Part shown: positions 2,170-47,018 of the stretch, piece after piece
How the letters are laid out: every line of letters begins with the position of its first letter
Position numbering within the stretch: position 1 is the stretch's first letter
NCBI GenBank assembly: GCA_021323415.1
Contig: JAJONM010000002.1
Location: 1-51,181 of the forward strand
Length of the DNA: 51,181 bases
Reading direction: 5' to 3'
From: Rickettsiaceae bacterium
GTDB taxonomy: Bacteria > Pseudomonadota > Alphaproteobacteria > Rickettsiales > UBA6187
Notes under the pieces: model-generated
Seen by the model: only the letters and a program-made list of their open reading frames with translations
Database searches by the model: none
Told to the model about the DNA's origin: nothing
Made by a program: the position numbers and the translations under genes

Positions 2170-2542
2170 ATCCAAACAGGGAAACCCCCGCCTATGGCGG
2201 GGGGACTGGCCCGTTTGACGTATGCGTCAGTAATTTTTACAATAAATAGCCTGTGAAGAAGCCAGTTTATATAATGTTGTTATTATGGGGACGTCATGCT
2301 GCGGCTCGACCGCAGTATCGAGGTAAAAATAAATAAAGCCATTTTGAAAAAATGACATGTTAAATAAGGGCACCTGGATCCTATGGTCTACGCCATAGGA
2401 TGACGTCGCACAACATGAAAACCTATGCTTGTAATTGAGTTAGAGGTGGACAAATACTCAGACCAAATCACATTATTGGGCTAATTTAACCCGCCTTGGG
2501 CGGTTCATATTCAGGCCTCCGGCTTTGCCGGAGGTAATTGAG
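2170..2542 (+). mobile_element. non-autonomous IS200/IS605-type remnant (left-end and right-end hairpins, transposase lost)
   Basis: Left hairpin CCCCCGCC-TAT-GGCGGGGG then ...GTTTGAC; right end AACCGCC-TTG-GGCGGTT plus CCTCCGGC-TTT-GCCGGAGG-TAATTGA, preceded by a TnpA-like C-terminal remnant EVDKYSDQITLLG-stop. Confidence 0.55.
2290..2407. repeat. Rickettsia RPE-4-like (CGTC-tagged) palindromic element
   Basis: GACGTCATGCTGCGGCTCGACCGCAGTATC ... GGATCCTATGGTCTACGCCATAGGATGACGTC: terminal inverted repeat with a hairpin in each arm. Confidence 0.7.
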
Positions 2543-2544
2543 CC

Positions 2545-2608
2545 CCTGGATAGCTCGCTTTTCTTGCTACTCACTTTGTTCGGAGAGAAAATCGACTTCC
2601 AGGATGAC
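2545..2608. repeat. right half of palindromic family A (GTCATCCTGGAA...TTCCAGGATGAC)
   Basis: CCTGGATAGCTCGCTTTTCTT...GAGAAAATCGACTTCCAGGATGAC closely matches 5356-5420. Confidence 0.8.
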
Positions 2609-2656
2609 GCCAGCATTATTTCACTTTTGCACTTCACCCAACCAAGGAGTCCCACC

Positions 2657-4167: not shown

Positions 4168-5229
4168 ATGAAAAGAAAAAATGAATTTAATGAAACTGAA
4201 AGAAATGTAAAAGCCAGAACGGATGCGAATAATCCATTAATTCCTGTATTTTTGCCTGGGGCAATGCCAGTAATACCTTTGCATCAGCTAACAGTTGGAG
4301 AGCCAACTCTGCACCAGGCCGCTAAAGCCGGTAATATAACCATGCTGCACAGGCCGATTGCAGAAAAAGGAAATTTAGATGCTCTAGATGCTGAGGGCGG
4401 GACTGCACTCATGTATGCAGCTCGATATGGTCGCACAGATGCTGCTATCTGGCTAATTCAAAGTGGCGCGAAAATAAACGCCGTTGGAAAAAATAATTAT
4501 ACTGCACTACATGTAGCCGCAGGAACTAGTAATGCCGCTACTATGCTTATGCTTATTGGTTTTGGTGCAGATATGAAGGCAAAGACTAATATCGGTTACA
4601 CGCCACTACATGTTGCTGCCCAATATGGCAGAACAGAGACTGCTGCTTTGCTGATTGATAAAGGCGCAAGTGTGGATGCAAAGAATGATCGAGATTCGAC
4701 ACCACTACATATTGCTGCTCAAAATGGCCACACAGGCGTTGCGGAGTTATTAATTAAGAACAGCGCAGATGTTAATGCAAGAGCTAAAGGTGATTTTACG
4801 CCACTACATATTGCTGCTCAAAATGGCCACACAGGCGTTGCGGAGTTATTAATTAAGAACAGCGCAGATGTTAATGCAAAAGATAAAAATGATGTTACGC
4901 CACTGCTTGTTGCTGCTTTCCATGGCAAGACAGAAATCATTACTTTATTACTGAGCAAAGATGCTGATCCTAAAATAAAGGATAAGCGTGGCAAAACAGC
5001 ATATGAATACGCCGCCGAAAAAGGCCATGCAGCAATTCAGGAGTTACTGCTCGATGCAATTGTAAAAAAAGAGTCTGTAACTGTCACACCTGACCAGGAG
5101 CCGCAACCGACTCCGCCTTCACCACCAAGCTTTGCTGAGAGAATAAAGGAAGAAGAAATTTTTGATGCACTTATAGTTGATGAAAAGGGTGAAGGACAGG
5201 AAAAGCCTTCGGATTCTAGGGGTAGGTAA
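4168..5229 (+). CDS. ankyrin-repeat protein (about 8 repeats), candidate effector without F-box
   Basis: Canonical TPLHIAAQNGH repeats; AGGAG RBS; N-terminus MKRKNEFNETERNVKART resembles the 9725/10924 genes; ends SRGR. Confidence 0.9.
   Translation: MKRKNEFNETERNVKARTDANNPLIPVFLPGAMPVIPLHQLTVGEPTLHQAAKAGNITMLHRPIAEKGNLDALDAEGGTALMYAARYGRTDAAIWLIQSGAKINAVGKNNYTALHVAAGTSNAATMLMLIGFGADMKAKTNIGYTPLHVAAQYGRTETAALLIDKGASVDAKNDRDSTPLHIAAQNGHTGVAELLIKNSADVNARAKGDFTPLHIAAQNGHTGVAELLIKNSADVNAKDKNDVTPLLVAAFHGKTEIITLLLSKDADPKIKDKRGKTAYEYAAEKGHAAIQELLLDAIVKKESVTVTPDQEPQPTPPSPPSFAERIKEEEIFDALIVDEKGEGQEKPSDSRGR
4702..4879 (+). repeat. recent tandem duplication of one ankyrin repeat (99-bp period)
   Basis: 4702-4780 and 4801-4879 are identical over 79 nt. 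Confidence 0.9.
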
Positions 5230-9724: not shown

Positions 9725-10921
9725 ATGAAAAGAATAGCTGAAGATAATGAACATGGAAGAAATGTAAGGCCGAGAACTGATGCAGGACAGGATAATTTTA
9801 TTTTAATGGACTATTCGAGTAATATATCCATACACGAGGCTGCAAAATCGGGCGATATAGCAGCTTTAGCGTTATTAACCCAAAATACAAAAAATATTGA
9901 TGCTCGTGATGCTTTTGGCTCTACTGTCCTGTATCAAGCTATTTGTGCTGGACGTACTAATGCTGCGATCTTCATGATTTCTAAAGGCGCGAATATTTAT
10001 TCGCTGGATGATTTTAATAGATCTGCCCTACATATTGCGGCTCAAAGTGGTAACGTAGAATTAACTGAATTTTTGTTAAGTCGCGGAGCTGATGTTAATG
10101 CAAAAGACGACTCTGGACAAACTACCTTAAGTTTGCTTGCTCATGAAGGGAGTGAAAATGATGGAGATTTTGCTGCTTTGCAAAAATTGTTAATAAAACA
10201 CAAAGCATACATAAATGTAATAGACTATGATGGTCTAGCCCCACTTCATATTACTGCCTTTGGTAGAATAGGAAGCGCAAGGCGTTTTATCGAAAATGGC
10301 GCCAATGTAAATTTACAAGATGACTCGGGTGACACATCAATAGACATCTACTTAAAAGTACGTCATGATCAGGATATATCCGAGTTTATTAAATTATTAC
10401 TTTGTGCTGGTGCTACTTACTCAAAAAAGCAGATAAAGTTTTATAGAGATAATACCTCCGGAAGTGCCGCGGCATTTAGTGTATTTGATTATGCAAAAAC
10501 TACTCTGACTTATCAACCAATACCACTTATTCCTTTATTAATGTTAAGCCCTGAATTTGTAGTTAGCTATTCTGCAGAGCTAAGAAAGGAAATAGAAGGC
10601 AAAGGAAGTAAAGCATTGTCGAAAATCCTTGAACGGACTGGATTACCTTATCTTCCAGCGGAATTGATAGGAAAAGAATTATTTAAATATCTTTCTATCG
10701 AAGATGTCGGCGTTGCTTTTTCCCTTTCCAGCCAGCATGACCAGCAAACCCGCCCATTAGATCAAGGTGAGCAAAGGGTAGTTCCATACTCACTTGATGT
10801 TGCAGAAAGGAATACCAGAGAAACCTACCCAGCTAAACTTGATGAGAAGATAAAATTATTTACTGCGGATATTGAGAAGAGAAGGGCTGAGGCTGATAAA
10901 GTGGCAAACAAGGGGAGATAA
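9725..10921 (+). CDS. ankyrin-repeat / F-box-like protein (candidate effector)
   Basis: Ankyrin repeats; LPYLPAELIGKELFKYLSIEDV F-box-like motif; N- and C-terminal blocks shared with 10924. Confidence 0.9.
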   Translation: MKRIAEDNEHGRNVRPRTDAGQDNFILMDYSSNISIHEAAKSGDIAALALLTQNTKNIDARDAFGSTVLYQAICAGRTNAAIFMISKGANIYSLDDFNRSALHIAAQSGNVELTEFLLSRGADVNAKDDSGQTTLSLLAHEGSENDGDFAALQKLLIKHKAYINVIDYDGLAPLHITAFGRIGSARRFIENGANVNLQDDSGDTSIDIYLKVRHDQDISEFIKLLLCAGATYSKKQIKFYRDNTSGSAAAFSVFDYAKTTLTYQPIPLIPLLMLSPEFVVSYSAELRKEIEGKGSKALSKILERTGLPYLPAELIGKELFKYLSIEDVGVAFSLSSQHDQQTRPLDQGEQRVVPYSLDVAERNTRETYPAKLDEKIKLFTADIEKRRAEADKVANKGR

Positions 10922-10923
10922 AA

Positions 10924-12555
10924 ATGAAAAGAATAGCTGAAGATAATGAACGTGGGAGAAATGTAAGGCCGAGAACTGATGAAGTGCCTCCGCTTGTTAA
11001 TCCAGCACCTATTATTAGTGCTCCACAACCTTTAGCCCCTCGGCAGCCAATAGTCAAAGCGCTACACATGGCGGCGATGGAAGGTAATATGGTGCAGTTG
11101 CGCCTGCTAGCAGAGCGCACTCAGGATATTGACGTGCGTGATAATGACGGAATGACTGCTTTATATTATGCGGTAGCGTATAACAACATTGATGCCACTC
11201 GATTTCTGCTTGAAAAGGGAGCAAAAAAAGAAGAAGTTGATAAATATGGCTCTAATGCACTGCATGTAGCTGCTTTAAATAATAGTTGTTATGTGGCTTC
11301 TATGCTTATTGATCTTGGTGTGGATGTAAATGTTAGAGATTCTGAAAATCGCACACCTATGCATGATGCTGCGACAGAAGAAGGTAGCTTACAAGTGCTT
11401 AAATTGCTATGTGCAAAAGGTGCTGATATAAATGCAAAAGACAATCACCGCGAGACACCGCTGGATTCTGCTGCCGAAAATGGCTACACTGAGATAGTTG
11501 AATTTCTGGTTAGTAAGGGAGCAAATATAAATGAAGAAAGATACTATAATGCCATTCCGTTAGATCGTGCAATAATAAATCTTCATAAAGAAACTGCTAA
11601 ATTTCTACTTAGTAAAGGCGCAATTATGACTGATGCTATATTTGCTGCTGTTGATGATTATAGTGATGCGAAAGAAACTTTGACTTTCTTACAAGATATC
11701 GGATGTGACATAAACAAAAAAATTTACGGTCATAGTGGAATTAGCCTCTTAAATTGTGCTTTGGGCAATGATAATCTTAATGATGATCAGTTTGAGGGAC
11801 TATTAAGATTATTTATAAGCCACAAAGCGCATATAAATTCTAAAAATGAAATGGGCAGTACCCCACTGCATCGAGCTGCACACGAACCCCAAGCAACAAA
11901 ATTTGTTATTGAAAATGGTGGTAATGTTAATTCTAGGAATGAGGATGGGAAGACTCTATTAGGACGGATATTAGATTATAATGGGGAAGTACATTATAAT
12001 GGAAACGCTTTAAAACTCACTACATTGTTACTTTGCGCTGGCGCTACCTTCACTTGGGAAGAGGTTAATGATGCACTTAAACATAAACAATCCGATAATG
12101 ACATAGAAGCGATAGTTGGTATCTTTAGAAATTCAAAAGTTATTAATCTATCTTTAGATAAACGCCAATTAGCAAATGAGTTTGTATCAAGCTATCCTGA
12201 GGAGCTTTTTAGTGAATTTGTAGATAAAGCAAGTGATACGGCATGGCAGATGATACAGCGTAATAGTAATAAATACGGCCCAAATGTATTTTTTAATTTG
12301 CCGAAGGAAATGATTAAAGAAATATTAGTAAGGCTTCCTGTTGCCGATATTTGCTCGTTCCTCACCCTTTCCAGCCAGCATGACCAGCAAACCCGCCAAT
12401 TAGCCGAGGGTGAGCAAAGGATAGTTCCATACTCACTTGATGTGGCAGAAAGAAGAACCAGGGAAACTTACCCAGCTAAACTCGACGCTAAAGTAAAATT
12501 ATTTACTGAAGATATTGAGAGAAGAAGAGATGGGGCTGAAGGCAGGGGAAGGTAA
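10924..12555 (+). CDS. ankyrin-repeat / F-box-like protein (candidate effector)
   Basis: Ankyrin repeats; FFNLPKEMIKEILVRLPVADI F-box-like motif; ends GRGR. Confidence 0.9.
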   Translation: MKRIAEDNERGRNVRPRTDEVPPLVNPAPIISAPQPLAPRQPIVKALHMAAMEGNMVQLRLLAERTQDIDVRDNDGMTALYYAVAYNNIDATRFLLEKGAKKEEVDKYGSNALHVAALNNSCYVASMLIDLGVDVNVRDSENRTPMHDAATEEGSLQVLKLLCAKGADINAKDNHRETPLDSAAENGYTEIVEFLVSKGANINEERYYNAIPLDRAIINLHKETAKFLLSKGAIMTDAIFAAVDDYSDAKETLTFLQDIGCDINKKIYGHSGISLLNCALGNDNLNDDQFEGLLRLFISHKAHINSKNEMGSTPLHRAAHEPQATKFVIENGGNVNSRNEDGKTLLGRILDYNGEVHYNGNALKLTTLLLCAGATFTWEEVNDALKHKQSDNDIEAIVGIFRNSKVINLSLDKRQLANEFVSSYPEELFSEFVDKASDTAWQMIQRNSNKYGPNVFFNLPKEMIKEILVRLPVADICSFLTLSSQHDQQTRQLAEGEQRIVPYSLDVAERRTRETYPAKLDAKVKLFTEDIERRRDGAEGRGR

Positions 12556-22482: not shown

Positions 22483-23109
22483 CTATTGGTCAAGGTTATT
22501 GATACTTTCTGCCAATTCCTTTATAGCCGTTTTTACCCCCTTAGGGTGTCCCCATACAAAGGATACGACAGCGATAAAATCCGCACCTGATTTAACTATA
22601 GGAGTAGAGTTTTCTGCGGTAATGCCACCAATTGCTACACATGGGACGACAGAATTGCGTACCCACCATTCTAAAATTTCTGGCTCGGGACGGGCTTTCG
22701 GTGTTTTAGTGGTAGTTGGATAAAATGCTCCGAATGCTACATAATCAGCGCCTTTTTCGGCGAAATCTATAGCCCTTTCGATTGAGCCGTAGCAACTGAC
22801 TCCCACCACTTTATTTCCCAATAATTTCCTGGCTTCATCATAAGTGCCATCTTTTTCTTCGCCGACATGAACCCCATCCGCACCCACTTTTGCGGCGATT
22901 CTGGCATTGTCATTCAATATAAATTGTACATTATGCTTATGACAAATAGGCATTAAGGCTTTGGCAGATTCAATAATCTCATTTTCAGGCAGGTTTTTTT
23001 GCCGTAATTGGAAAACGGACACATGACCATCAGCCAAAGCTTCTTCCAGCTTTGGCTTAAAGATTTCCAATTCGATTTTTTCAGGGCTGATTAGATAGAG
23101 TTGGGTCAT
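22483..23109 (-). CDS. thiE: thiamine-phosphate synthase
   Basis: FQLRQK, ILND, ADGVHVG, GVSCY, AIGGIT motifs. Confidence 0.92.
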   Translation of the reverse strand: MTQLYLISPEKIELEIFKPKLEEALADGHVSVFQLRQKNLPENEIIESAKALMPICHKHNVQFILNDNARIAAKVGADGVHVGEEKDGTYDEARKLLGNKVVGVSCYGSIERAIDFAEKGADYVAFGAFYPTTTKTPKARPEPEILEWWVRNSVVPCVAIGGITAENSTPIVKSGADFIAVVSFVWGHPKGVKTAIKELAESINNLDQ

Positions 23110-24473
23110 TTTGTGAATAATTCTGTTAGTTTATCAGTTGGGTAATAATAAATGTTGTTACCTTGGCGTTTTGAAAAAAGTAGCCCATTTTTTTCTAGTG
23201 ATTTTAGGTCATTAATTGCGGTTGGTTTTGTAACATCATAAATATTCATATACATAGTTGCGTTGGTTCGATCATCTTTGTTGCCATGAAAATGTTGTAG
23301 AAGCTTAATTTGCCGATCATTAAAATTATATTCAGTATGGGCTAATTTACTCATACTTGCATTCTTTTCTTTTTGAGCTGTTAGAAATTGATTAAATTCA
23401 TTTTTTGCTTCTTGAATTTTTCTTAAATTGTAATCGATAAAATATGTAAGATCATAGTCATCCTGTTCACTGTAAATATACGCTTTGCAATATTGTACTT
23501 TAGATTTTTTTATTATGGTAGAAATGGGAAGATATGCAAAGGCCCAATATCCTTGACGTAATATATACCAGTAAAATAATGTTCGTGCTAAACGTCCATT
23601 GCCATCAACATAAGGATGTAAGTACCCAATCCAGAAATGCAACATTATTGCTTTTATTAGTGGGTGTATGTAGCCGACATCTAATTCATTGTTTGCAAAT
23701 TGTATTAGCTTATCTATTTCTTCCTCTACAAAAGCAATTTTTGGAGTGATGTGCGTAATTATATTTTGATTGTTTGGATCGGTTATTACTATATTGTCTT
23801 CATCTTTACGAAAAACTCCAGGTGAGCTTCCTTCATCTAATGTTCCTTCTGTTATCACTGAATGTATTTCTGCTAATAATTTTCTGCTTAAGGGGTGATT
23901 CTTATAATTTGTCTCTATCTCTTTCATTGCCTTATAGTTGTTTACTATCATGCGCTCGGAATAATTTCTTGGTTTGCGTCCTTCTCTAATAAGTTTTTTT
24001 GCGGCCTGTCTGGTTGTATGTGCTCCTTCCATTTGTGAGGATGCTATGGCTTCTTCCAAAATGCCGCGCGAAATGAATTCATGTTTATCTTCTTTTGAGA
24101 TATTACTTATTCCCATTAGATTGCCACCTAATTCTAGATCGATATAATGGAGCATTTCATCGTAATGTCTAAGTTTGTGCCATGCAAAAAATTGATTATC
24201 TTCGGCTTTTATAGGGGATGATATTGTTCCCTGCATTTGTCTAGTGAGCTTCACTAGGCCCCAAATTTGTTTTTGGCTTAGCTTTTTTGGAAACCATTGT
24301 TTATTTTTAAACTCTGACCAATATAGATACTTAGGACTTATAGTTTTTACTGCTGCATCGGCGGCAATGTCCATATCTTCTTGTGATAATAGCTTTCTTA
24401 TATTAAGAAATTCTTTTATTAGATCATCATCGTTATAATGGCCTGGACTTTCTAATTTTAATATCTTTTCCAT
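23106..24473 (-). CDS. Fic-domain protein with C-terminal winged HTH
   Basis: HPYVDGNGRLAR Fic motif, SSQMEG inhibitory-helix motif, C-terminal TKPTAINDLKSL HTH; ATGA overlap with thiE. Confidence 0.93.
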   Translation of the reverse strand: MEKILKLESPGHYNDDDLIKEFLNIRKLLSQEDMDIAADAAVKTISPKYLYWSEFKNKQWFPKKLSQKQIWGLVKLTRQMQGTISSPIKAEDNQFFAWHKLRHYDEMLHYIDLELGGNLMGISNISKEDKHEFISRGILEEAIASSQMEGAHTTRQAAKKLIREGRKPRNYSERMIVNNYKAMKEIETNYKNHPLSRKLLAEIHSVITEGTLDEGSSPGVFRKDEDNIVITDPNNQNIITHITPKIAFVEEEIDKLIQFANNELDVGYIHPLIKAIMLHFWIGYLHPYVDGNGRLARTLFYWYILRQGYWAFAYLPISTIIKKSKVQYCKAYIYSEQDDYDLTYFIDYNLRKIQEAKNEFNQFLTAQKEKNASMSKLAHTEYNFNDRQIKLLQHFHGNKDDRTNATMYMNIYDVTKPTAINDLKSLEKNGLLFSKRQGNNIYYYPTDKLTELFTK

Positions 24474-31544: not shown

Positions 31545-33251
31545 ATGATGGCATACTTTCACAATAATTGTTTATATACCTTCGTTGAGCTACAACGAAA
31601 AGCCATCGAGCCCCTTCGTCAACTAGTTTCGATAAATAGAGAATTCAGTAATTCATTGTTTTCTAAATCATCAATTGGCAGATCTATTTTAGCATCGTTT
31701 GAATTGTTTGAAAGAATAACACGTAATTATGAAAAACCTGCATTTGGAATTGCACATACAAATGTGAATGGAAAAAAAGTTGCGATAAAAGAAAAAACAA
31801 TTTTATCGAGAACTTTCTGTGATCTGATTCATTTTGAAAAAGCTGAAAATTATAATCTTCCAAAAATGTTAGTAGTTGCACCATTGTCTGGTCACTATGC
31901 AACATTGCTACGTGGAACGGTTGAAGGATTGCTTCCTCACTTTGATGTTTATATCACTGATTGGGTTAATGCTCGTGATGTGCCGATGGATGAAGGTTCA
32001 TTCGGGCTTAACGATTTTGTAAGCTATGTTACTTTGTTTATGCAAACTTTAGGGCCTGACTTAAATGTTACGGCGGTATGCCAGCCATCAGTTCCTGTGT
32101 CGGCAGCAGTTTCTATTATGTCGAAAGAAAATGATCCAATGGTTCCTGCTAATTTAATATTAATGGGTGGACCGATTGATACTCGTCATAACCCGACAGA
32201 AGTAAATGATTATGCAACTGAGAAAACTATTTTCTGGCTAGAGACGAATGTAATAACAAAAGTTCCAATGAACTATGCTGGTGCTGGCAGGTCGGTATAT
32301 CCTGGATTTACACAGCTTTCAGGGTTCATGGCTATGAATATGCAGATGCATATAAAAGCACATTGGGATTTATATACTCAATTAGTTGAAGGTGATGGCG
32401 AGAGTGCTGAAGCGCATAAAAAATTTTATAACGAGTATCTATCGGTAATGGACTTGCCCGCAGAATTTTATCTAGATACAGTAAATACAGTATTTAAGAA
32501 ACATTTGTTGCCTCGTGGTAAAATGATTTGTAATGGAAAGGAAGTGCATCTTTCGGATATAGATAAAACTTCACTTCTATGCATAGAAGGTGAATTGGAT
32601 GATATTTCTGGAATCGGCCAAACTAAAGCGGCTATTACTTTATGTAAAAATATTCCAGAGAAAAGGAAAAAATACCACTTACAGAAAGATGTCGGTCATT
32701 ATGGAATATTTAATGGTAGACGTTATCGTGAGTTTGTAGTGCCAGTAATAGTTAGTTTCGTGGCTAAAAATGCCGAAACTGAAGGGCACAAAAAGAATAA
32801 AAAGGCAACCGCGCATTCTGCGGAAAAAACTGCACCGGCCAGGAAGGCCAGGTCTGTTATGCCTATACGGAATTCTTTTGCTGTGAAAACAGCGGAGAAT
32901 ACAGTGGCGGCCAGTAAGGCTTCTGCTGTTAAAATTAATGAACCAACCAAAATAGGAGTACCTAACATGACTATAGCTAAAAAACCTGCGGCTAAAAAAC
33001 CAGCTGCAAAAAAGAAAGTAGTTGCTAAAAAGAAGCCGGCTGCAAAAGCTACTGCTGTTAAAAAAGTAGCAGTTGCTAAAAAGCCAGCGGCTAAAAAACC
33101 AGCTGCTAAAAAGCCAGCTGCTAAAAAAACTGTAGCTAAAAAGCCAGCTGCTAAGAAAACTGTAGCTAAAAAGCCAGCTGCTAAAAAGCCAGCTGCTAAA
33201 AAAACTACAGCTAAAAAACCAGCTGCTAAAAAAACTACAGCTAAAAAGTAG
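31545..33251 (+). CDS. phaZ: intracellular PHB depolymerase fused to a histone-H1-like AKKP tail
   Basis: APLSGHYATLLRGTV, AVCQP (Cys nucleophile), LMGGPID, EGELDDI, VGHYGIF; then a linker of about 65 aa and AKKPAAKK repeats. Confidence 0.92.
   Translation: MMAYFHNNCLYTFVELQRKAIEPLRQLVSINREFSNSLFSKSSIGRSILASFELFERITRNYEKPAFGIAHTNVNGKKVAIKEKTILSRTFCDLIHFEKAENYNLPKMLVVAPLSGHYATLLRGTVEGLLPHFDVYITDWVNARDVPMDEGSFGLNDFVSYVTLFMQTLGPDLNVTAVCQPSVPVSAAVSIMSKENDPMVPANLILMGGPIDTRHNPTEVNDYATEKTIFWLETNVITKVPMNYAGAGRSVYPGFTQLSGFMAMNMQMHIKAHWDLYTQLVEGDGESAEAHKKFYNEYLSVMDLPAEFYLDTVNTVFKKHLLPRGKMICNGKEVHLSDIDKTSLLCIEGELDDISGIGQTKAAITLCKNIPEKRKKYHLQKDVGHYGIFNGRRYREFVVPVIVSFVAKNAETEGHKKNKKATAHSAEKTAPARKARSVMPIRNSFAVKTAENTVAASKASAVKINEPTKIGVPNMTIAKKPAAKKPAAKKKVVAKKKPAAKATAVKKVAVAKKPAAKKPAAKKPAAKKTVAKKPAAKKTVAKKPAAKKPAAKKTTAKKPAAKKTTAKK
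32967..33251 (+). CDS. nested in-frame histone-H1-like protein (94 aa, MTIAKKPAAKK...)
   Basis: AGGAG-N8-ATG exactly where the Lys/Ala/Pro repeats begin, in frame with phaZ (codon 475). Confidence 0.65.
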   Translation: MTIAKKPAAKKPAAKKKVVAKKKPAAKATAVKKVAVAKKPAAKKPAAKKPAAKKTVAKKPAAKKTVAKKPAAKKPAAKKTTAKKPAAKKTTAKK

Positions 33252-34622: not shown

Positions 34623-37600
34623 CTAATCCCCAATATCAAATATATTCCTGAGTACGCCAGGGGTTAGGATGGAAAGTGGGTTCACGCTTGCTTTTACATC
34701 GTCATAGGGACCTTTAATGCGGTAGTTAGTAGCTATTAACCCTTCGTTCTTTTTGCCTACTAACAGATTTCCGATAAGTGGAATTTTGCCAAATGCTTTG
34801 TTAATTTCATAAGCTGGTACTATTGCGCCTTTTAAATCCACTTCACTTTTCGTAAGGTTGATTGTGCCGCTAGAAGTTATTCCAACTGATGATCCGCTAC
34901 TTTTTGCATCAGTAACTGTTATAATTCCGCCTGCTAAAGTGAATGGTGCTTCAAATTTTTTGAAGGTAATTCCCTGATTGTTTAGTATATCTCCAATCCC
35001 TTGTAGGGAAGCTAAAGTAAGTATTTTTCCAAGCAAAGGGGTTTTGATTGCAACAAAATCATGCATTACAATTGTGCCTTGTGCAGTTAATTTATTATTT
35101 GCATTTACAAAAGTAGCATCCACATTTAAAGCTCCACCGCGAATGTTTTTTGATATTCCAAGAGCATTTATTAATGCTCCGGCATTATCAGATTTTACAA
35201 GTAAAGCGAAGTTTTTCTTTAAAGGTTTTAAGCTTAAGGAAACCGAGCTGCTATCCTTAAATTTGCCGTTAGCATTTGCTGATGTGCATAGCTTGTTATT
35301 GCATATTGCCTTGGCAGAAAAATTATCTAATACCTCGCCATTTTTCATATAAAGTTTTTCGGCATCAATTTTTAAGTCCAAACTTTTCTTTTCATTACTT
35401 TTATCATTTTGGAATAGCTGTCCGAAGGACACATTGCTTAAGTCTAAGCTATTACCCTTTAAATCAATTTTATAGCCAGCATGATCCATTGCATAATTTA
35501 CCTTTAGATCATTACGCGAATATTTTACTTTCTCCATAGAGAGTGAGGTAAGTTGAGACTTTTCTATTGTCATATTACCGCTGGCTGAAATATTATCACC
35601 TTCAGCTTTGAATGATTCTATATGGATAATATCATCTTCACCTTGTTTGCCACTAAAGTTTATTTTGGTATTAATCCCGGCTTCCTTGTTAAAACCGATA
35701 TCAGGGATGGAAACTTTAGATTTAGTTATATCGGCGGTCCCTTGAAAGAATGTATCTAAGCCATGCATATCCATGGTCACATCTACAATGAAATTATCTG
35801 AAACAAAAGGGACATTGGCAAAGTCTAAATCAGATAGGTATTTAGCTGATATCTCGCCTGCTATATGATACTTTGCTTCATTTTCTTTGTCGAAGTCTTT
35901 ATAAAAACCAACAGTAATAGGTACGCCATTTAGAGTAGCTTTGCCGTTTACATCAAGAAGGAATTTCTTAAGGGTAAGGGTAAATTCTGCATCGCTAAAG
36001 CTATTTCCGTTTATAAGCTCTGGTACAGTAGTTTTTGAAAATTTCGAAGTTATCTCAAGGTTCATATCTTTATAAGTAAGATGTTCTGTAAGTGGTATTG
36101 ATATAAGTACGCTACCTTCAGCTAAGCCAGTTGCTTTATATATGCTTTCTAGTTCTTTAGTTGGTTTTACACCTTTTAAACCAGCTTTAACGAATGCTAT
36201 ACCATCTTCAGCAGTGCCAGAAAAATCTCCTTTGATATCAAGACTTGTATGGTGATGCCATAGGTTTTCCATTTTAAGTTCGGCATTAGTAACCGCAGTG
36301 TTTAAAATTGTAGCTTTGCTTGCATTGACATACATTGAATTTCCGGTGAACATCACAGTTCCAGACACATCTTTGATTTGTGGATAGCCATCATAATAGC
36401 CTACATTAGTATTTTCTACGCTGATTGTGGCACTGATAGCGTCGTCATTCAGCGGTGATTCAATTGGTTGTGTTGGATCTTGATGATACAGAAGATTCCA
36501 TGCTTTTATTTTTTCTATATCTTCTGGTGTGAAGAAAAATGCTCCTGTAGCACCAGTTACCTTGCCACCGCTTATATTGGTTACAACCCAATTACGAGCT
36601 ACTTCTCCTAAAGATTCAGGCCAATAATTAGCTACTTGATCAACATCAACATTACCAATTGTGACTTCTGCCTTAATTTCAGGTGATATCTCGGGCAATG
36701 TTGCTTTGTTTGATATAGTTCCTGAAAGTGCAATAGTTGATTGGTCAACCATGGTAACAACTTTGTTTAAGGTAAGTATAGAAAAATTTTCGTATAGGCT
36801 ACCTTGCGCAGACATTGATTTTATATTAACTGGCACTTGAAAATATTGCGGTAAATTAACAGTGCCGGATATCTCTTTTAAATCAAACTGTAGTTGTGAA
36901 ATATCTCCACTTGGTGTGAGAAGAAGGCTAATATCGCCGTTGGTGCTAACATGTATTTCTCGCAAGTAATCTACTGTTGGAAATAAGTCGGAGGCTAGAT
37001 ATGATGGCAGTTTAGTGAATTTTACTTTGGTATCTATATTACCGTCATTGGTGTAGGCAGTTTCAGCGCCGAAATATGTTGTAGCTGTGCCAAAATCTAT
37101 GTTGAATTCAGAAATTATTTTATTTTGATTATTAATGTTTTCAACTTTGGAATAACCATTTTTTATATGCCAGACAAATTCGCTCATACCGTTGTTGATA
37201 TAAAGACTGGCATCTTTTAAATGTATGCTATTTATCGGGAAATTATAGGCTTTTGATTTAAGTTCGGTAGCTAAGCGGTCAGCAATTGCCTTTTGTATTG
37301 CTGGGTATTTAGGGGAGGTCACATATATACTCTTTTGTGATGTATCTATGTAAAAGTTTGGTTTTACCAGCGTCAAGTCAGAAGAGAAGAACTGCCCTCG
37401 CATGAAACGTAAAATACTAAAATCAAATGTAATTTCTGGAAATGAAGCTATAACATCATTTGTATCATTTAAGATGCTAATTTCATTTACTGTTATTGTA
37501 AATGATCGCTGGAAGCTATCCCATTTTATGTGGCTATCCTTAATAGATATTTGCGTTCCTGGGCTTATGTTACTTAATTCTTTTTGTATATAAGGAGTAA

Positions 37601-37721
37601 GGGGTGATAACGAACGGGGGCCGGTTATAACCCATATGAATAGACTAATAACAGAAAGCATTAGCATTATTCCAATTACGGAAAGTATCTTTGTTGATAT
37701 GCTTATGCCTCTTATCAGCAC
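34623..37721 (-). CDS. AsmA-like / YhdP-DUF3971 family envelope protein
   Basis: N-terminal TM anchor, YWPESLGEVARNWV, C-terminal G.IVPAY.IN..IPLIG..VNPLSILTPG; usual position between tyrS and bcp. Confidence 0.88.
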   Translation of the reverse strand: MLIRGISISTKILSVIGIMLMLSVISLFIWVITGPRSLSPLTPYIQKELSNISPGTQISIKDSHIKWDSFQRSFTITVNEISILNDTNDVIASFPEITFDFSILRFMRGQFFSSDLTLVKPNFYIDTSQKSIYVTSPKYPAIQKAIADRLATELKSKAYNFPINSIHLKDASLYINNGMSEFVWHIKNGYSKVENINNQNKIISEFNIDFGTATTYFGAETAYTNDGNIDTKVKFTKLPSYLASDLFPTVDYLREIHVSTNGDISLLLTPSGDISQLQFDLKEISGTVNLPQYFQVPVNIKSMSAQGSLYENFSILTLNKVVTMVDQSTIALSGTISNKATLPEISPEIKAEVTIGNVDVDQVANYWPESLGEVARNWVVTNISGGKVTGATGAFFFTPEDIEKIKAWNLLYHQDPTQPIESPLNDDAISATISVENTNVGYYDGYPQIKDVSGTVMFTGNSMYVNASKATILNTAVTNAELKMENLWHHHTSLDIKGDFSGTAEDGIAFVKAGLKGVKPTKELESIYKATGLAEGSVLISIPLTEHLTYKDMNLEITSKFSKTTVPELINGNSFSDAEFTLTLKKFLLDVNGKATLNGVPITVGFYKDFDKENEAKYHIAGEISAKYLSDLDFANVPFVSDNFIVDVTMDMHGLDTFFQGTADITKSKVSIPDIGFNKEAGINTKINFSGKQGEDDIIHIESFKAEGDNISASGNMTIEKSQLTSLSMEKVKYSRNDLKVNYAMDHAGYKIDLKGNSLDLSNVSFGQLFQNDKSNEKKSLDLKIDAEKLYMKNGEVLDNFSAKAICNNKLCTSANANGKFKDSSSVSLSLKPLKKNFALLVKSDNAGALINALGISKNIRGGALNVDATFVNANNKLTAQGTIVMHDFVAIKTPLLGKILTLASLQGIGDILNNQGITFKKFEAPFTLAGGIITVTDAKSSGSSVGITSSGTINLTKSEVDLKGAIVPAYEINKAFGKIPLIGNLLVGKKNEGLIATNYRIKGPYDDVKASVNPLSILTPGVLRNIFDIGD

Positions 37722-37872: not shown

Positions 37873-38346
37873 ATGACTTCTGTTTTACAAGAGGGTGATA
37901 ATGCGCCAGATTTTACCTTGCCATGCGATACTTTTGAGGATTTTACGCTGTCAGCTAACAAAGGAAAAATAATTGTATTGTATTTTTATCCGAAAGATAA
38001 CACGCCTGGATGCACCCAGCAAGCTATAGAGTTTACAGAATTAATGGAAGAGTTTAAGGCTGCCAATGCAGTCGTTGTAGGGATGTCTAAGGACGATCCT
38101 GAAAGCCACCAATCGTTTAAAAAGAAACAATGTATAGGGTTCCCTTTGGTCTCTGACATTGATGTTACCGCCATGGATGATTATGGAGTGTGGGCGGAAA
38201 AAAATATGTACGGAAAAAAATACATGGGCATAGAACGTTCTACATTCCTAATTGATCAAAAGGGAGTGATCCGTAAAATCTGGCGTAAAGTTAGCCTTAA
38301 AGGGCATGTGAAAGAGGTTTTGGAAGAGGTTAAGAAGATTGCTTAG
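37873..38346 (+). CDS. bcp: BCP/PrxQ peroxiredoxin
   Basis: LYFYPKDNTPGCT, GIERSTFLID. Confidence 0.95.
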   Translation: MTSVLQEGDNAPDFTLPCDTFEDFTLSANKGKIIVLYFYPKDNTPGCTQQAIEFTELMEEFKAANAVVVGMSKDDPESHQSFKKKQCIGFPLVSDIDVTAMDDYGVWAEKNMYGKKYMGIERSTFLIDQKGVIRKIWRKVSLKGHVKEVLEEVKKIA

Positions 38347-38410
38347 GCTTTCTGCCTATCACAGGGTGCGCTGGATGGATTCTAGAGGCTTGTTATTTTA
38401 TAAAAGAACT

Positions 38411-41400
38411 TTGGTAAGTAAAAAGCTTTTACTAAAAGTGATGTGTATTTTCCTCGGTTTTGTGCTAACCGGATTTACCGATAAAGATGAAGTTTATTAT
38501 CAGTCGCACCTTGGTGAAGCTGTTTCCTTGCTAAACGGCCGGTGTAAATCGGTTGGTGATGATTTTTTTACAAAAGATTCTGAATGTGTTTCTGCTAGAT
38601 TTACAGTGCAGCGCGATATTGAGGTAAAAGAGCGGAATGCTTTAATAGAAAGCTTGCATAAAAAACGTGAAAAACTCGATAAGCTTGTAAAAATTGACGA
38701 TTTAAATAAGCAGCGTTATGCACTTTTTAAAAGCGATTTTTCTAATGATATAGAAAAAACCGGCGATTTTATTATCGAATGTTTCAAGAGTGATAAAAGA
38801 GTTGTGCAAAATGGCGTTGAATGCCTTGCATCTGTTGACTCTATGATACAGACGCTGGAAAAAAAGCGCGATGAAGAGATTGTAAAAAATGATAAAGAGA
38901 TAAAATACAAAGAGCATTATCAGCGATATTTTAGGGAAGATGCAAGCAGGATAGACCAGGTTTTAGAAGGAAGATGCAAAGAATTATTTGCTAATCCATG
39001 GTATAGTTATGACCCTGAGTTACAGGATAAAGAATGTAACATTGCTGTAGAAGAAAAACGTCGTAATAAAAGACTAAACAGTGTTACCAGAATTCAAAAA
39101 AAGCAGGAAGACAAAAGGGATTTGGAGTATTTCAAGAAACGCATTTCTGAGGCGTTTATGATGCAAAAAGATTGCGATTCTGGTTCTGAGAAAAACAAAG
39201 AAAACTGTAGCAATGCCAAGGAAGCTATCCAGCAATTTGAAGAAAATAAAAACAAGGCAGCAGAATTTAGAAAGATTTACCAGCGCGATATTCAGGCTGC
39301 CAAGAAAACAGCCGAAAGCTGCCGTGCTGGTGACAATACAGATAACGTAAAATGTTTGGCGGCAACAGCAATAATCAATGAAGATGTCCGTAAGGTAAAA
39401 GAACGGCAGGAGTTGAACCGTTATCTACTATATTACCGGGGGAATCTTGAAGAAGCCAAAAAATTATTGGTTACAAAATGTAATGTCCACAAGGAAGAAA
39501 GCTCCCAATTTGTTAAGGATAGCGAGTGTATCGCTATAAAAAGAATAGTAAATGAGGATGTTGCATTTAGGGAGCGTGATAAGCTAATTGCGCAGCTGGA
39601 GTCTATAAAAGCTAATTTATCAAAGTCTGTTGATTTACAAAAGAAAGAAAACATCCAACGCTTCAATAGTTTTAAAGAAAGTTTTGCGCTTGATAACGAG
39701 AGTGCAGAAGACTTTGTTGCATCTTGTATAAATGATAAAGAGCGTGCCTCTAACAATTCTGTGGAATGCTTTGCGTCAACGGAATCTGTGTTGGAGACCA
39801 TAAAGAAATTGCGCGAAGATGGGGTAGCAAAGTTGGAAAAAGAAGCGCAATTTAGGGATAGTTACCAAAAGCGCTTGCGCTATCTTAAGGAACATGAGGA
39901 AGAAGCTGAAGCTATATTAAATGGTAGATGTAAGGCTATTTTTTCTGATCCTTGGTATGATTATGACGTAGATATTCAGGATAGTGAATGTAATGCCGCC
40001 CTTGAAGCCAGGCGCTCTATCCGTAGGGCGGAATTACTTTCTCGTTCTGGTCTTGGTAGTGGAAAGGACTTGTCGTATTTCCGTTCAAATATCAAAGAGG
40101 CTGCTCAGGTGCAGGAGGCATGTAGTAAGGACAGTGATATAGACAAGAAATCGTGTGATGCGGCTGGGCAGGCTATCGAAGAAGATAATAGAAAGAAACA
40201 GAAGCAAGTTGAGTATAGGAGGTATTATTCAGAACATTTAGATGAGTCTAGTGAAGTTGTAAAACAGTGCCAGGCTTTAGTAGAAAAAGATGATGATAAA
40301 TGTGATGTTGTGCTTGAAATAGAAAGTAGGGAGGTAACCAGCAAACAAAATAAAGAAAAGTTAAAGCGGTTTGTTGCTTTCTATCGGAGTAATGTAAAAA
40401 AAGCTTCAGAATTTATAGCTAAAAGTTGTAATGACCTGTCTAATGTTGATGAGGTGGTGCAACTTGAATGTAAGGCGGCTGCTGAAGTTGCGAAGGAAAG
40501 TGCGGCGGCAAAAATTAACAATGCATTATTAGAAGATTTACACAAACTAAAAGAAAAGCTGATAAGCACAATAAGCGCAGAAGATGCAAATAAATCCCGC
40601 TATGAAAAACTGCGTGATAATTTTAGGTCTGATATTAATGGCGCACAGGAATTTGCTTTATTGTGTGCGAAAGATAATGTTAGGCTAAAACGCAGTAAAA
40701 TTGAGTGTCTGGCATCAGTTAACTCCCTTGTGGAATACCTTGAAGTAAATAACGAAAATGCTGCGAAGGAATCTGAAAAGCAGAAAAGCTATAAGGAGTC
40801 GAGGAAAAGCTATTTTAGGAGCAATAGTGCTGAAGCGGACAAGCTATTAGAAGGGCGCTGCAAACCGATACTTGCAGATCCGTGGTATCGCTACGATAAG
40901 GATTTGCAGGACGAAGAATGTAATGCAGCTTTTTCTGAAAAAAGAAGACGCGATGAAATGAAGCAACTTGCATCAATTATTGGTAATGAAGATGCGAAAA
41001 AAGATTTAACTTATTATAGAAAAAACCTTGCTGAAGCTAAAGTTTTTTCAGAGGAATGCGCAAATAAAGAAAAAACTGCAGAATGCGAATATGCAGTCCG
41101 GGTGTTAAATGAAAAGAAAGAAGAAGAAACTAAAAAGAAGGAATATAAGGAATATTTTAGCAGTAATGCCATTGAGGCGAAAAAAGTTGTAGATGAATGC
41201 AATGAAGAAAAAGAACAAGATAAGCTAAAATGTAGTATAGCAAACGAAGTTTATAGCAAAAATATCAGGTCTGATCGTGATAAAAAAGAATTTGCCCGTT
41301 ATGTTAACTATTATAAAGCTAATATAGAAGAGGCAAGGGCGATAGAGCAGGGCAAGTGTAAGAACTACATTGGATTAGCTGATAGCATTTTTATTGAGGA

Positions 41401-42385
41401 TTTAGAGTGCTCTGCTGTTTTTGAGGCTATAAAAATTACAGAGGCTTTAAATGGACGTGATGAATTAATTAGCAGGCTAAGCCTAATAAAAAGAAAGATT
41501 GCACCTAATTTTGGCAATACTAAAAACAAGAAATATAAAAGCTACTTAGAGTTTTTCAAAAATAACCCTGAAGAAGTAGAAAAATTTATTGCTTCATGTG
41601 CTGGAAATGGAGTCCGGGCAAAGCAAAATAACCTTGAATGCGTGGCTGCAATTGATTTTTTGAAAGACAAGCTTGAGCTGCAAAAGAAGGATGAAGCCGA
41701 TAAGCTACTGGTCGAACAAAAATATAAAGAATATTACCGTAAGAAATTTAAAGAAAATCCTAAAGTTGTTGATGATTTGCTAAGTGGTCACTGCAAAATT
41801 TTATTTGCTGATCCTTGGTACGGATATGACTCGGACACACAAGATAGAGAGTGTGATGCGGCAAGAGCGGAGCGAAATGCAGAAAGCAGGATTGCGGAAA
41901 ATATAAAATTATCTAGTGAGAAAAAGGAAGTTAAAAACATTGATTACTATCGTAAAAACGCTGATAAAGCAAAGGCATTGGCTGAAGAATGTGCAGATGG
42001 TGTAGTTACTAGCCTATCTGATTGCGAAATGGCTCTGCGCGTAGATAGGGAAGTTACTTCTAAGACTAAAAAACAAACTGAATATACTGAGTTTTACAAA
42101 GGCCATCCGCTTGCAGCGCAGTTCCATTTGCGTTGGTGCAAATCAGCGATGCTTAATTTCGATACCGAGTGCCAGGTAGTAGATGAAATTTTGAAAAACC
42201 ATAAGAATCGGGTGGATGATCCGGAATTGGTAAAGAAATATACAGAGCTTTTCCAGAAAAACCCTCACGCTGCCTTAGATGCACTTAAAGGTGTATGTGC
42301 AGAGAAAATCAAAGATTCCTGGTATTTTCTTGATGTTAATCTGCAAACTGAAGAATGTAATGCTGCGCTGGAGGTGATTAAGTAG
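38411..42385 (+). CDS. large exported Cys-pair repeat protein (4 x 5 modules + 1, EexN-like units)
   Basis: 21 C-x(8-19)-C pairs, each preceded by a Y/F-x-x-N/H/D-x-x-E-A-like helix; signal peptide if started at TTG 38411 (start uncertain, frame open from 38339). Confidence 0.85.
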   Translation: MVSKKLLLKVMCIFLGFVLTGFTDKDEVYYQSHLGEAVSLLNGRCKSVGDDFFTKDSECVSARFTVQRDIEVKERNALIESLHKKREKLDKLVKIDDLNKQRYALFKSDFSNDIEKTGDFIIECFKSDKRVVQNGVECLASVDSMIQTLEKKRDEEIVKNDKEIKYKEHYQRYFREDASRIDQVLEGRCKELFANPWYSYDPELQDKECNIAVEEKRRNKRLNSVTRIQKKQEDKRDLEYFKKRISEAFMMQKDCDSGSEKNKENCSNAKEAIQQFEENKNKAAEFRKIYQRDIQAAKKTAESCRAGDNTDNVKCLAATAIINEDVRKVKERQELNRYLLYYRGNLEEAKKLLVTKCNVHKEESSQFVKDSECIAIKRIVNEDVAFRERDKLIAQLESIKANLSKSVDLQKKENIQRFNSFKESFALDNESAEDFVASCINDKERASNNSVECFASTESVLETIKKLREDGVAKLEKEAQFRDSYQKRLRYLKEHEEEAEAILNGRCKAIFSDPWYDYDVDIQDSECNAALEARRSIRRAELLSRSGLGSGKDLSYFRSNIKEAAQVQEACSKDSDIDKKSCDAAGQAIEEDNRKKQKQVEYRRYYSEHLDESSEVVKQCQALVEKDDDKCDVVLEIESREVTSKQNKEKLKRFVAFYRSNVKKASEFIAKSCNDLSNVDEVVQLECKAAAEVAKESAAAKINNALLEDLHKLKEKLISTISAEDANKSRYEKLRDNFRSDINGAQEFALLCAKDNVRLKRSKIECLASVNSLVEYLEVNNENAAKESEKQKSYKESRKSYFRSNSAEADKLLEGRCKPILADPWYRYDKDLQDEECNAAFSEKRRRDEMKQLASIIGNEDAKKDLTYYRKNLAEAKVFSEECANKEKTAECEYAVRVLNEKKEEETKKKEYKEYFSSNAIEAKKVVDECNEEKEQDKLKCSIANEVYSKNIRSDRDKKEFARYVNYYKANIEEARAIEQGKCKNYIGLADSIFIEDLECSAVFEAIKITEALNGRDELISRLSLIKRKIAPNFGNTKNKKYKSYLEFFKNNPEEVEKFIASCAGNGVRAKQNNLECVAAIDFLKDKLELQKKDEADKLLVEQKYKEYYRKKFKENPKVVDDLLSGHCKILFADPWYGYDSDTQDRECDAARAERNAESRIAENIKLSSEKKEVKNIDYYRKNADKAKALAEECADGVVTSLSDCEMALRVDREVTSKTKKQTEYTEFYKGHPLAAQFHLRWCKSAMLNFDTECQVVDEILKNHKNRVDDPELVKKYTELFQKNPHAALDALKGVCAEKIKDSWYFLDVNLQTEECNAALEVIK

Positions 42386-46229: not shown

Positions 46230-47018
46230 GTGTCTAGATATATGTCAAAATTGCATCTTGAGCAGCGTTTAATCGATTTTGCAAAAAATGGAAATATTGT
46301 TGAAATACAAAGACTTATGAATAATGGGATTAACCCTGCAGCAAATAATAATATGGCGTTATGGTGGGCTGCCAGCAAAGGACGGCTGGATATATTAGAA
46401 CTTTTGCTTACTGATTGGAGAGTTAGCCCGGCAGCGCGTATGAATGTAGCGATCGCTATTGCTTCTGAAAATGGCCATACCGAAGTTGTTAAATTTTTAC
46501 TTGCTGATGTACGCGTAAATCCTGCAGAAAATGGCAATATTGCAGTTCATTCTGCAGCTAGAAATGGCCATTTTGATGTGGTTGAGATGCTTATTTCTGA
46601 TAAGCGTGTCGATCCATCAGATGCTAATAACACTGCAATCCGCAGGGCTTCTGCTAACGGGCATATTAATACTGCCCAATTACTTTTGGCTTATGGGGCA
46701 AATATCGGTCATAGAAAATTTGATGAGATGTACCAGGCTGCATACACTGGTTTTATTGGTGCTGTTAGCCAGGGAGCGCGTGAATACCTATCAAATAAAG
46801 AAAAAGTACGCACAATAGCTAATAACCATGCTGAGATAATTAAAAATAGAAGCTTGGCAGCTTGTGCATCTGTGATAAGAGCAGCTCACAATAGGAAGCA
46901 GAACCAAAATAATGTTACCCCACTAAACAATGTAGTGAAGCATAACTTTACGAATGATTGGTCTGTTCTTGGTAGTGTTATTGTTGCAAAAAATGCTGAT
47001 ATGCATGTAGTGGCTTAA
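46230..47018 (+). CDS. ankyrin-repeat protein with DxRVxP-type repeats
   Basis: Repeats NxAIxxASxNGHxEVVxxLLxDxRV(S/N/D)P; GGAG RBS before GTG. Confidence 0.88.
   Translation: MSRYMSKLHLEQRLIDFAKNGNIVEIQRLMNNGINPAANNNMALWWAASKGRLDILELLLTDWRVSPAARMNVAIAIASENGHTEVVKFLLADVRVNPAENGNIAVHSAARNGHFDVVEMLISDKRVDPSDANNTAIRRASANGHINTAQLLLAYGANIGHRKFDEMYQAAYTGFIGAVSQGAREYLSNKEKVRTIANNHAEIIKNRSLAACASVIRAAHNRKQNQNNVTPLNNVVKHNFTNDWSVLGSVIVAKNADMHVVA

Follow-up and report, generated by a model that had tools for sequence, protein, structure and literature searches.

A giant, predicted exported protein built from 21 EexN-like cysteine-pair modules in a soil Rickettsiales-like bacterium

To our knowledge, exclusion proteins of the EexN type (NCBIfam NF033894; the pKM101/IncN Eex type, also present on IncX4 plasmids) are known only as tiny plasmid-borne lipoproteins. 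Such a protein consists of one module of ~55 mature residues, carries a lipid anchor and has its gene on a conjugative element, flanked by virB5 and virB6. Pohlman and colleagues reportedly established in 1994 that EexN acts on the recipient side to block transfer by P-type type IV secretion systems (T4SSs), and we know of no other experimentally established activity of this domain. Comparable small periplasmic exclusion lipoproteins, TrbK and TrbK-alt of the IncP/Ti-type systems, are encoded between virB5-like and virB6-like genes, while exported arrays of Cys-stapled α-helical repeats are found in the middle repeats of CagY, itself a T4SS component, and in the Sel1-like proteins of Helicobacter. 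The closest functional model for the mechanism considered below is Tpf (XAC2611; DUF4189) of the Xanthomonas X-T4SS, described in a preprint as a chromosomal, Sec-exported, non-lipidated and disulfide-rich periplasmic protein that guards against kin T4SSs by binding VirB5 (10.64898/2026.05.09.723464). Here we describe a chromosomal gene whose giant product appears to be assembled from 21 EexN-type modules. It lies in a stretch of 51,181 nucleotides (the window, meaning the whole of the DNA analysed: positions 1 to 51,181 of the forward strand of contig JAJONM010000002.1, GenBank assembly GCA_021323415.1) from a soil Rickettsiales-like bacterium, classified as a Rickettsiaceae bacterium, with a genome assembly of 2.06 Mb in 140 contigs that is 92.7% complete.

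The reading frame of this gene is open on the forward strand from 38339 to 42385 (1348 codons), and the product read from an in-frame TTG at 38411 has 1324 residues and 43 cysteines, one of them in the signal segment and the other 42 in 21 pairs. The spacings within the pairs run 14-17, 14, 20, 9-11 and 11, four times over, and close with a final 20, so that the layout is (module types 1-2-3-4-5) x 4 plus a terminal module, T. The four super-repeats (SRs) measure 310-316 aa each (~312) and share 26-33% pairwise identity, with blastp E values of 1e-39 to 1e-57. An earlier note on this DNA, made from the letters alone, had described 21 Cys pairs in four ~310-aa super-repeats of five types plus a final module; both the Cys spacing and blastp bear this out, the same spacing recurs in 18 other proteins of the family, and the module string quoted there, YYRKNLAEAKVFSEECANKEKTAECEYA, is module 14. 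At the level of DNA only patches of 20-86 nt align among the super-repeats and Tandem Repeats Finder reported no array in the gene, which argues that the super-repeats are old protein-level duplications; a tandem-repeat or assembly artefact was rejected on the same grounds. The motif G(R/H)CK..(D/N)PWY.YD...QD.EC..A, also noticed earlier, is invariant across the four type-3 modules, and a DSWY variant of it closes the protein. Conservation is highest in types 3 and T, whose mean pairwise identities are 0.37 and 0.39, respectively, against 0.26-0.27 in the other types; five of the six Trp residues of the mature protein fall in the [DN]xWY loops of these two types. The mature protein is otherwise marked by its size (~150 kDa), an isoelectric point of 6.1, 38% charged residues and only 12 Pro.

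The modules are linked to EexN by profile searches in both directions. With NF033894 the whole protein obtains an E value of 3.4e-10 and 39.7 bits against a cut-off of 33, a score that is the sum of seven partial stretches, the best single module reaching 25 bits; taken singly, seven of the 21 modules match at E<0.01 (best 1.3e-5) and 12 give no match. Among 13 other members of the family eight match this model, two of them over the cut-off, and five do not; the best match falls in a type-4 position in seven of the eight and in the last module of the super-repeat in the remaining one, P0005. Conversely, a profile of the four super-repeats, searched against 1.84 billion (1.84e9) representative proteins, retrieved at E 6.3e-5 a 77-aa protein (P0025) that scores 67 bits on NF033894 and is 98.7% identical to an annotated "EexN family lipoprotein" of IncX4 MPF_T conjugative plasmids, on which this counterpart adjoins T4SS genes. 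Modules of each type were also pooled across 19 family proteins and aligned by hhalign with an independent EexN alignment (22 sequences, from a 401-genome scan of the phylum plus P0025, none of them from the giant family). The probabilities were 96.9% for type 4 (E 1.4e-10), 93.4% for type 5, 92.8% for type 1, 70.6% for type 2, 27.9% for type T and 14.6% for type 3. As nulls, reversed EexN profiles never exceeded 3.3%; with 30 column-shuffled profiles the highest values were 1.0-4.1% for five of the types (no more than 3.4% for types 1, 2, 4 and 5) and 14.9% for type 3. Types 1, 2, 4 and 5 are thus directly linked to EexN, as they far exceed the reversed and shuffled nulls, whereas the link of type T looks marginal and type 3, which stays at the shuffled level, is not directly linked; both are tied to the remaining types instead (3-T 99.6%, 3-1 97%, T-5 97%). 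A 20-row EexN alignment compared by hhalign with the four super-repeats of the window's protein gave 85.6% (E 5.5e-6), on the type-4 columns. When the source genome was scanned with a hidden Markov model (HMM) of the 22-sequence EexN set, this gene alone matched (E 4e-9), and no further EexN-like gene was found by that HMM in this genome, which is 92.7% complete; weak NF033894 matches on two other contigs of this genome, C72 and C69, were dismissed as covering only the signal-peptide part of the profile. As judged from these profiles, the resemblance is shown to be one of true homology, and the modules descend from EexN, the entry-exclusion lipoprotein domain of P-type (VirB-like) conjugation systems. 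The kinship proposed in the earlier note therefore stands directly for four module types, with type 3 and the marginal type T connected to EexN only through the others.

The features shared with EexN are a [YF][YF]xxNxxEA helix, a Cys, a loop of 7-12 residues and a Cys-x-[ND]-A helix, i.e. a predicted helix-loop-helix with two Cys at the helix ends, as well as export to the periplasmic side; the loop-bracketing Cys pair is present in all 21 modules. Structure models agree with this picture. An AlphaFold2 model of SR4 plus T (from an 18-row alignment; mean pLDDT 86.5, pTM 0.41) is entirely helical, with the first Cys of a module ending one helix and the second beginning the next, which is often long (24-42 residues); the low pTM means that the arrangement of the modules relative to each other is not defined in this model. 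In the corresponding model of P0025 (20 rows; pLDDT 87-97 over the mature core) helices at 28-33 and 35-47, the latter with Cys45, are followed by a loop and a helix at 53-75 with Cys55, and module 19 of the giant protein has helices at 216-221 and 223-234 with Cys233, a loop and a helix at 241-269 with Cys244. The predicted pattern of helices and Cys is the same in both, and the charged helices that the earlier note saw joining the modules are recognizable as the long helices of the model. The Cys pair of each module is disulfide-competent, and the disulfides would presumably form. No sequence relatives were found in the PDB, against which Foldseek gave best E values of 4.3 for the SR4 plus T model and 4.9 for the EexN model, and the best Z of a wide VIA-align search with the former was 6.0, on generic helical segments. 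Taken together, these results make it very probable that we are dealing with a real, conserved gene for an all-α array of 21 EexN-derived helix-loop-helix modules obeying a strict grammar.

Nevertheless, the giant protein is not a strict member of the EexN family, for it has no lipobox, 21 modules rather than one and no linkage to a T4SS. Its modules have diverged into six types connected by long charged helical linkers, its 1324 residues compare with open frames of 74-256 aa in the sampled canonical members, and its gene is set in a chromosomal housekeeping context (neighbors yhdP-like, bcp and rnhB) rather than embedded in a P-type T4SS locus, unlike a canonical EexN gene that we found between virB5 and virB6 homologs (L036). 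Other known systems are more distant. The TrbK-alt model TIGR04360 matches a single module of the 21, a type-3 one, without significance (E 0.072, 13.5 bits against a cut-off of 33). The repeats of CagY and the Sel1-like proteins differ from those of the giant protein in length and motif, and Pfam, searched up to E 10, gave no match to CagY, Sel1 or TPR models, so the CagY-like rod offered earlier as a looser analogy has no backing from these sequence models. Nor did Pfam match DUF4189, making the analogy with Tpf a functional one only; Tpf has an unrelated, β-rich fold with three disulfides and 164 aa, and is encoded in or beside a T4SS locus (10.64898/2026.05.09.723464). On the whole protein Pfam yielded nothing significant up to E 10 (DUF3179 0.038, TIP39 0.11, Hydrophobin_2 2.4). 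EexN-like modules have also been multiplied in ~300-aa chromosomal lipoproteins from another lineage within the phylum (L053:1498-2430, L055:1495-2388 and L056:1498-2430, in genomes G663, G528 and G536), which combine an N-terminal EexN-like module (31 bits on NF033894) with 3-4 Cys-pair modules and belong to no Pfam family; they differ in having kept the lipobox and in their 4-5 irregular modules, with neither the five-type super-repeat nor the DPWY loop; in them the EexN module has been multiplied a second time, independently. Their genes neighbor purB/nrdG-like genes, or FKBP and thioredoxin-like genes. In two further loci (L050:1492-1905 and L054:1303-1902) an EexN-like lipoprotein module is fused to a coiled-coil-like tail of ~70 aa, and one of these fusion genes adjoins a GspH-like pilin gene and an SMC-like ATPase gene, not a T4SS. 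The giant protein thus represents a new architecture and a new family made from a known domain, and it indicates that multiplication of the EexN domain can give rise to a protein that is large, soluble and chromosomally encoded.

The family is very small: the super-repeat profile matched 25 proteins at E<=1e-3, of which 16 reached E<=1e-30, and the sources that give a member a name all have "hypothetical protein", from metagenome-assembled genomes (MAGs) of Rickettsiales or Alphaproteobacteria. The Cys spacing is constant in 19 family proteins, the window's included; an exact tiling of n x 5 + 1 modules is seen in 14 of the 18 others, five family proteins are N-terminally cut or irregular in tiling, and the terminal module stands at the C-terminus of every member examined. 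Counting the window's protein, the regular members have one super-repeat (~384-402 aa; four proteins), two (~699-761 aa; six) or four (1324-1336 aa; three). A tree of 32 super-repeats groups SR1 and SR2 of the window's protein with SR1 and SR2 of P0006 and P0007 as orthologs (support 99/98 and 94/98), whereas SR2-4 of the four-SR protein P0005 form a clade of their own (100/100), and the four-SR state must therefore have arisen more than once. A word-indexed homolog search returned nothing beyond the protein itself and one 761-aa relative, and the Protein Atlas offered no usable match; a literature search, supplements aside, gave no description of multi-module or Rickettsiales EexN-like proteins, the relevant EexN titles being concerned with plasmids. 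The representative search also brought up P0023, a stand-alone 94-aa lipoprotein (lipobox MTAC) with one terminal-type DPWY module, encoded on a contig of 634 bp. It has no match in plasmids, and searched in 400 genomes of the order it finds only the giant genes of the five genomes mentioned below; a metagenome scan gave four loci, which match just its signal/linker part.

A scan of 401 genomes of the order with the super-repeat profile (12 of the same family, including the source, and 389 elsewhere) detected the giant protein in five, all of that family: the source and four of the 11 others, with none among the 389. In all five the gene lies directly 3' of bcp on the same strand, and a gene for a ~1030-aa YhdP/AsmA-like protein diverges from bcp; the downstream neighbor varies (rnhB, rpoN or a gene for a 731-aa protein). 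In the window the gap to bcp is 28-94 nt, depending on the start chosen, and contains no terminator-like site. However, the yhdP-bcp pair is also present in four of five examined family genomes without the giant gene, implying that the adjacency may only mark a site of insertion and weakening the argument for a functional bcp/yhdP operon. Among carriers the giant protein is 31-38% identical, the YhdP-like protein 40-44%, Bcp 54-63% and tyrosyl-tRNA synthetase 64%. Two genes beyond the yhdP-like gene in G050 and G013 we noticed by eye a DsbB-like open reading frame (ORF) with a CxxC in its first membrane segment (L064:13603-14154 and L065:13272-13823, respectively); no equivalent was seen near the giant gene in the window.

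There are three candidate starts. Besides the TTG at 38411, an ATG at 38375 has a Shine-Dalgarno-like AGGGTG ~9 nt upstream and is the start implied by a 1336-aa database member that is >=90% identical, and the NCBI version of the protein (1314 aa) begins at the ATG at 38441. The same segment, with KK, a hydrophobic stretch and VLTG-F, lies downstream of all three, and it contains the 43rd, unpaired Cys but no lipobox Cys, so that the lipoprotein signal typical of EexN is lacking. Cleavage would putatively follow VLTG. It had been remarked that the signal peptide ends one base short of a lipobox, and the codon of this Phe is indeed TTT, a single change from TGT; but two orthologs also have Phe after the hydrophobic core (P0004 with LTGF, P0006 with LAAF), and the sites in most other members are of the signal peptidase I type (AFA-Q, SYA-D, AFA-D). 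A recent loss of the lipobox is therefore rejected, the resemblance being at best an old vestige. The features of this segment show a protein predicted to be exported by a Sec-type signal peptide without lipidation, and the description of a chromosomal, multiplied, non-lipidated Eex derivative agrees with the locus, the tiling and the end of the signal.

As to function, the most specific hypothesis, which we consider tentatively and without giving it high odds, is a soluble multivalent guard directed at T4SSs. In the oxidising periplasm the protein would form an elongated, disulfide-stabilised and highly charged array, displaying many EexN-type binding surfaces along with five conserved DPWY loops. 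This array might attach to some extracytoplasmic component of a T4SS, in the manner of EexN in a recipient or of Tpf in Xanthomonas, and so dampen injection from sibling cells or incoming T4SSs, with multivalency and solubility substituting for the lipid anchor. As the T4SS of the host appears to be without VirB5, the likeliest target would be an extended VirB6 paralog or the pilin. In the literature, exclusion proteins are linked to VirB6-family partners (PMC4027160) and a chromosomal periplasmic Cys-rich protein blocks attack by kin T4SSs through VirB5 binding (10.64898/2026.05.09.723464). A more far-reaching version, which we regard as doubtful, would make the protein a factor of kin exclusion or self-protection for an effector-translocating T4SS: a lineage of Rickettsiales would have converted the entry-exclusion domain of plasmids into a soluble 21-module periplasmic shield, whose five module types recognize the extracytoplasmic extensions of the five RvhB6 paralogs, in a system apparently without VirB5, and which prevents mutual injection among densely packed siblings. 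If true, the rvh machine would have its first exclusion system in this protein, which would also be the first poly-Eex protein.

The T4SS genes of the source genome (G000) comprise two VirB4 genes, one VirD4, VirB3, VirB2 and five tandem VirB6 paralogs (626+ to 1270 aa); VirB5 was not found, although the same search was silent in all control genomes, which makes this negative a weak one. This matches the rvh layout described for Rickettsiales, in which virB5 is missing, virB4 is duplicated and there are 4-5 enlarged virB6 genes (PMC7648143). It is an atypical system and the sole T4SS detected in the carrier bacteria. All five RvhB6 paralogs have N-terminal extensions of 380-870 aa, two of them with lipoboxes and Cys-rich N-termini. 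The island of virB3, virB4 and five virB6 genes occupies contig C72:1-17608 (loci L062 and L087); three of the five VirB6 paralogs share a motif C[VA][AM]ADD[WF]G near the N-terminus, and virB4 is separated from the first virB6 by a 117-aa ORF that matches no family.

A number of observations weigh against a T4SS-directed guard. The giant gene is never adjacent to T4SS genes, being ~35 kb from the VirB6 array in G013 and G050, ~70 kb from it in G142, and on a different contig in the source genome. Among the 11 other family genomes rvh VirB6 arrays are found in 10 and the giant protein in four, with six keeping the array without the protein, from which it follows that this T4SS does not need the protein; neither this co-occurrence nor the position of the gene supports the role in T4SS regulation or exclusion that the earlier note had suggested. 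Further, the chromosomal lipoproteins mentioned above, with their EexN-like modules in housekeeping contexts of other lineages, imply that the domain is not bound to such loci; the part of the protein that is most conserved, the DPWY loop in types 3 and T, has no significant direct link to EexN; and neither a target nor a structure of EexN is established in the literature we found. On the other side stands one suggestive case. In a tree of YhdP plus Bcp from nine genomes the five carriers fall within one clade of six (support 100/99), and the sixth, G075 (a MAG, 98% complete), has its yhdP-bcp locus assembled but no giant gene there. No VirB6 was detected in it and its single VirB4 scores 113.6 bits. 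In the other genomes checked VirB4 occurs twice, one copy scoring 116-127 bits and the other 192-208 bits; the higher-scoring copy adjoins the VirB6 array in all three genomes whose contigs permit the check. The virB3-virB4-virB6 island of G075 may be truly lost or simply unassembled. A complex prediction that paired SR4 plus T with one RvhB6 lipoprotein paralog, represented by its N-terminal periplasmic domain, returned "no answer" (0.00, the mark being 0.32), an outcome that covers this one paralog and counts neither for nor against binding.

About as likely as the T4SS-directed guard, and equally tentative, is a co-opted envelope scaffold, in which the EexN hairpin is a mere stable building block of the periplasm with no link to type IV secretion. 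The protein would then be a soluble, elongated polyampholyte whose DPWY loops bind a conserved envelope ligand, such as the cell wall, an outer-membrane protein or a cation. Such a role is consistent with the place of the gene 3' of bcp and beside the YhdP/AsmA-like envelope gene, kept in all five carriers, with the lack of any T4SS linkage and co-occurrence, and with the existence of the EexN-like multi-module lipoproteins in housekeeping contexts; moreover, an acidic, aromatic loop repeated five times in the most conserved types, 3 and T, fits an invariant ligand better than the target of an arms race, and the divergence of the protein barely exceeds that of its YhdP-like neighbor. However, neither Pfam nor NCBIfam provides an anchor, a peptidoglycan-binding or any other known domain, the best Z of 6.0 is in the common range for helical proteins and offers no structural relative hinting at a ligand, and a super-repeat number of 1, 2 or 4, expanded independently, is a poor fit to a spacer of fixed length. 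The restriction to five of the 12 genomes of one family also means that the giant protein is no core part of the envelope. Were the T4SS link to hold, the family would offer a handle on what exclusion domains bind and on what the enlarged VirB6 paralogs of Rickettsiales do; were it to fail, it would still be a new disulfide-stapled helical repeat scaffold with an expandable strict grammar, (1-2-3-4-5)n + T.

It is unlikely that the protein is a cis-acting partner of the cell's own rvh T4SS, binding the periplasmic extensions of the five VirB6 paralogs to organise, gate or stabilise the machine instead of giving protection from other cells. The EexN homology would serve this role as well as it does the T4SS-directed guard, the RvhB6 extensions would share the periplasm with the protein, and the co-absence in G075 fits; yet the six family genomes that keep the VirB6 array without the protein and the absence of gene linkage speak against it, and EexN is reportedly a recipient-side factor, not one of assembly. 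Quite unlikely, too, is a released or surface-exposed protein acting on a eukaryotic host, for instance by way of vesicles. Many endosymbiont repeat proteins do act on the eukaryotic host, disulfide stapling suits extracellular life, and the repeats are lineage-restricted and variable in copy number; on the contig of the window there are, in addition, genes for five ankyrin-repeat proteins and one Fic protein, as is typical for host-associated bacteria. On the other hand, no outer-membrane translocation domain or secretion signal beyond the Sec signal and no eukaryote-like domain were seen, and the host cytosol would reduce the disulfides. A redox partnership with Bcp, in which the giant protein would be expressed together with the peroxiredoxin and its 21 disulfides would sense or take up oxidants in the periplasm, is highly improbable: bcp does precede the giant gene on one strand with no terminator-like site between them in all five carriers, and one of the three EexN-like multi-module lipoproteins of the other lineage (L056) also follows an AhpC/TSA-fold gene, but Bcp has no signal peptide and must be cytoplasmic, the yhdP-bcp pair exists without the giant gene, and the Cys pairs at the helix ends of the AlphaFold2 model look like structural staples.

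Table 1. Positions in the window of the giant gene, its modules and its conserved neighbors
Feature	Position	Strand	Remarks
Coding sequence of the 21-module protein	38375..42385	+	three candidate starts; stop at 42383-42385
Putative signal-peptide region (KK, hydrophobic stretch, ...VLTG-F)	38411..38476	+	orthologs with signal peptidase I type sites
Super-repeat 1, modules 1-5	38480..39415	+	orthologous to SR1 of P0006 and P0007
Super-repeat 2, modules 6-10	39416..40363	+	orthologous to SR2 of P0006 and P0007
Super-repeat 3, modules 11-15	40364..41293	+	
Super-repeat 4, modules 16-20	41294..42232	+	groups, with weaker support, with the last or sole SR of shorter members
Terminal module 21, type-3-like DSWY loop, Cys spacing 20	42218..42382	+	
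Type-4 module of SR1	39095..39244	+	best single EexN-profile match (E 1.3e-5, 25 bits)
Other type-4 modules	40043-40192, 40979-41122, 41912-42061	+	
Type-3 module of SR1, loop GRCK..NPWY.YD...QD.EC	38897..39073	+	
Other type-3 modules	39851-40027, 40781-40957, 41714-41890	+	
bcp (AhpC/TSA peroxiredoxin)	37873..38346	+	directly upstream, same strand
YhdP/AsmA-like envelope protein	34623..37721	-	divergent from bcp; conserved neighbor

Elsewhere in the window the five ankyrin-repeat ORFs lie at 346-2118, 4168-5229, 9725-10921, 10924-12555 and 46230-47018, and the Fic-domain ORF at 23106-24473 on the reverse strand, the two together amounting to an effector-like content typical of a host-associated bacterium. 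An ORF with a terminase large-subunit RNaseH-like domain (2525-4018) sits among the ankyrin genes and may be the remnant of a phage or gene transfer agent. A further ORF, at 31545-33251, fuses the C-terminal domain of a polyhydroxybutyrate depolymerase to a histone H1-like (HC2) lysine-rich tail.

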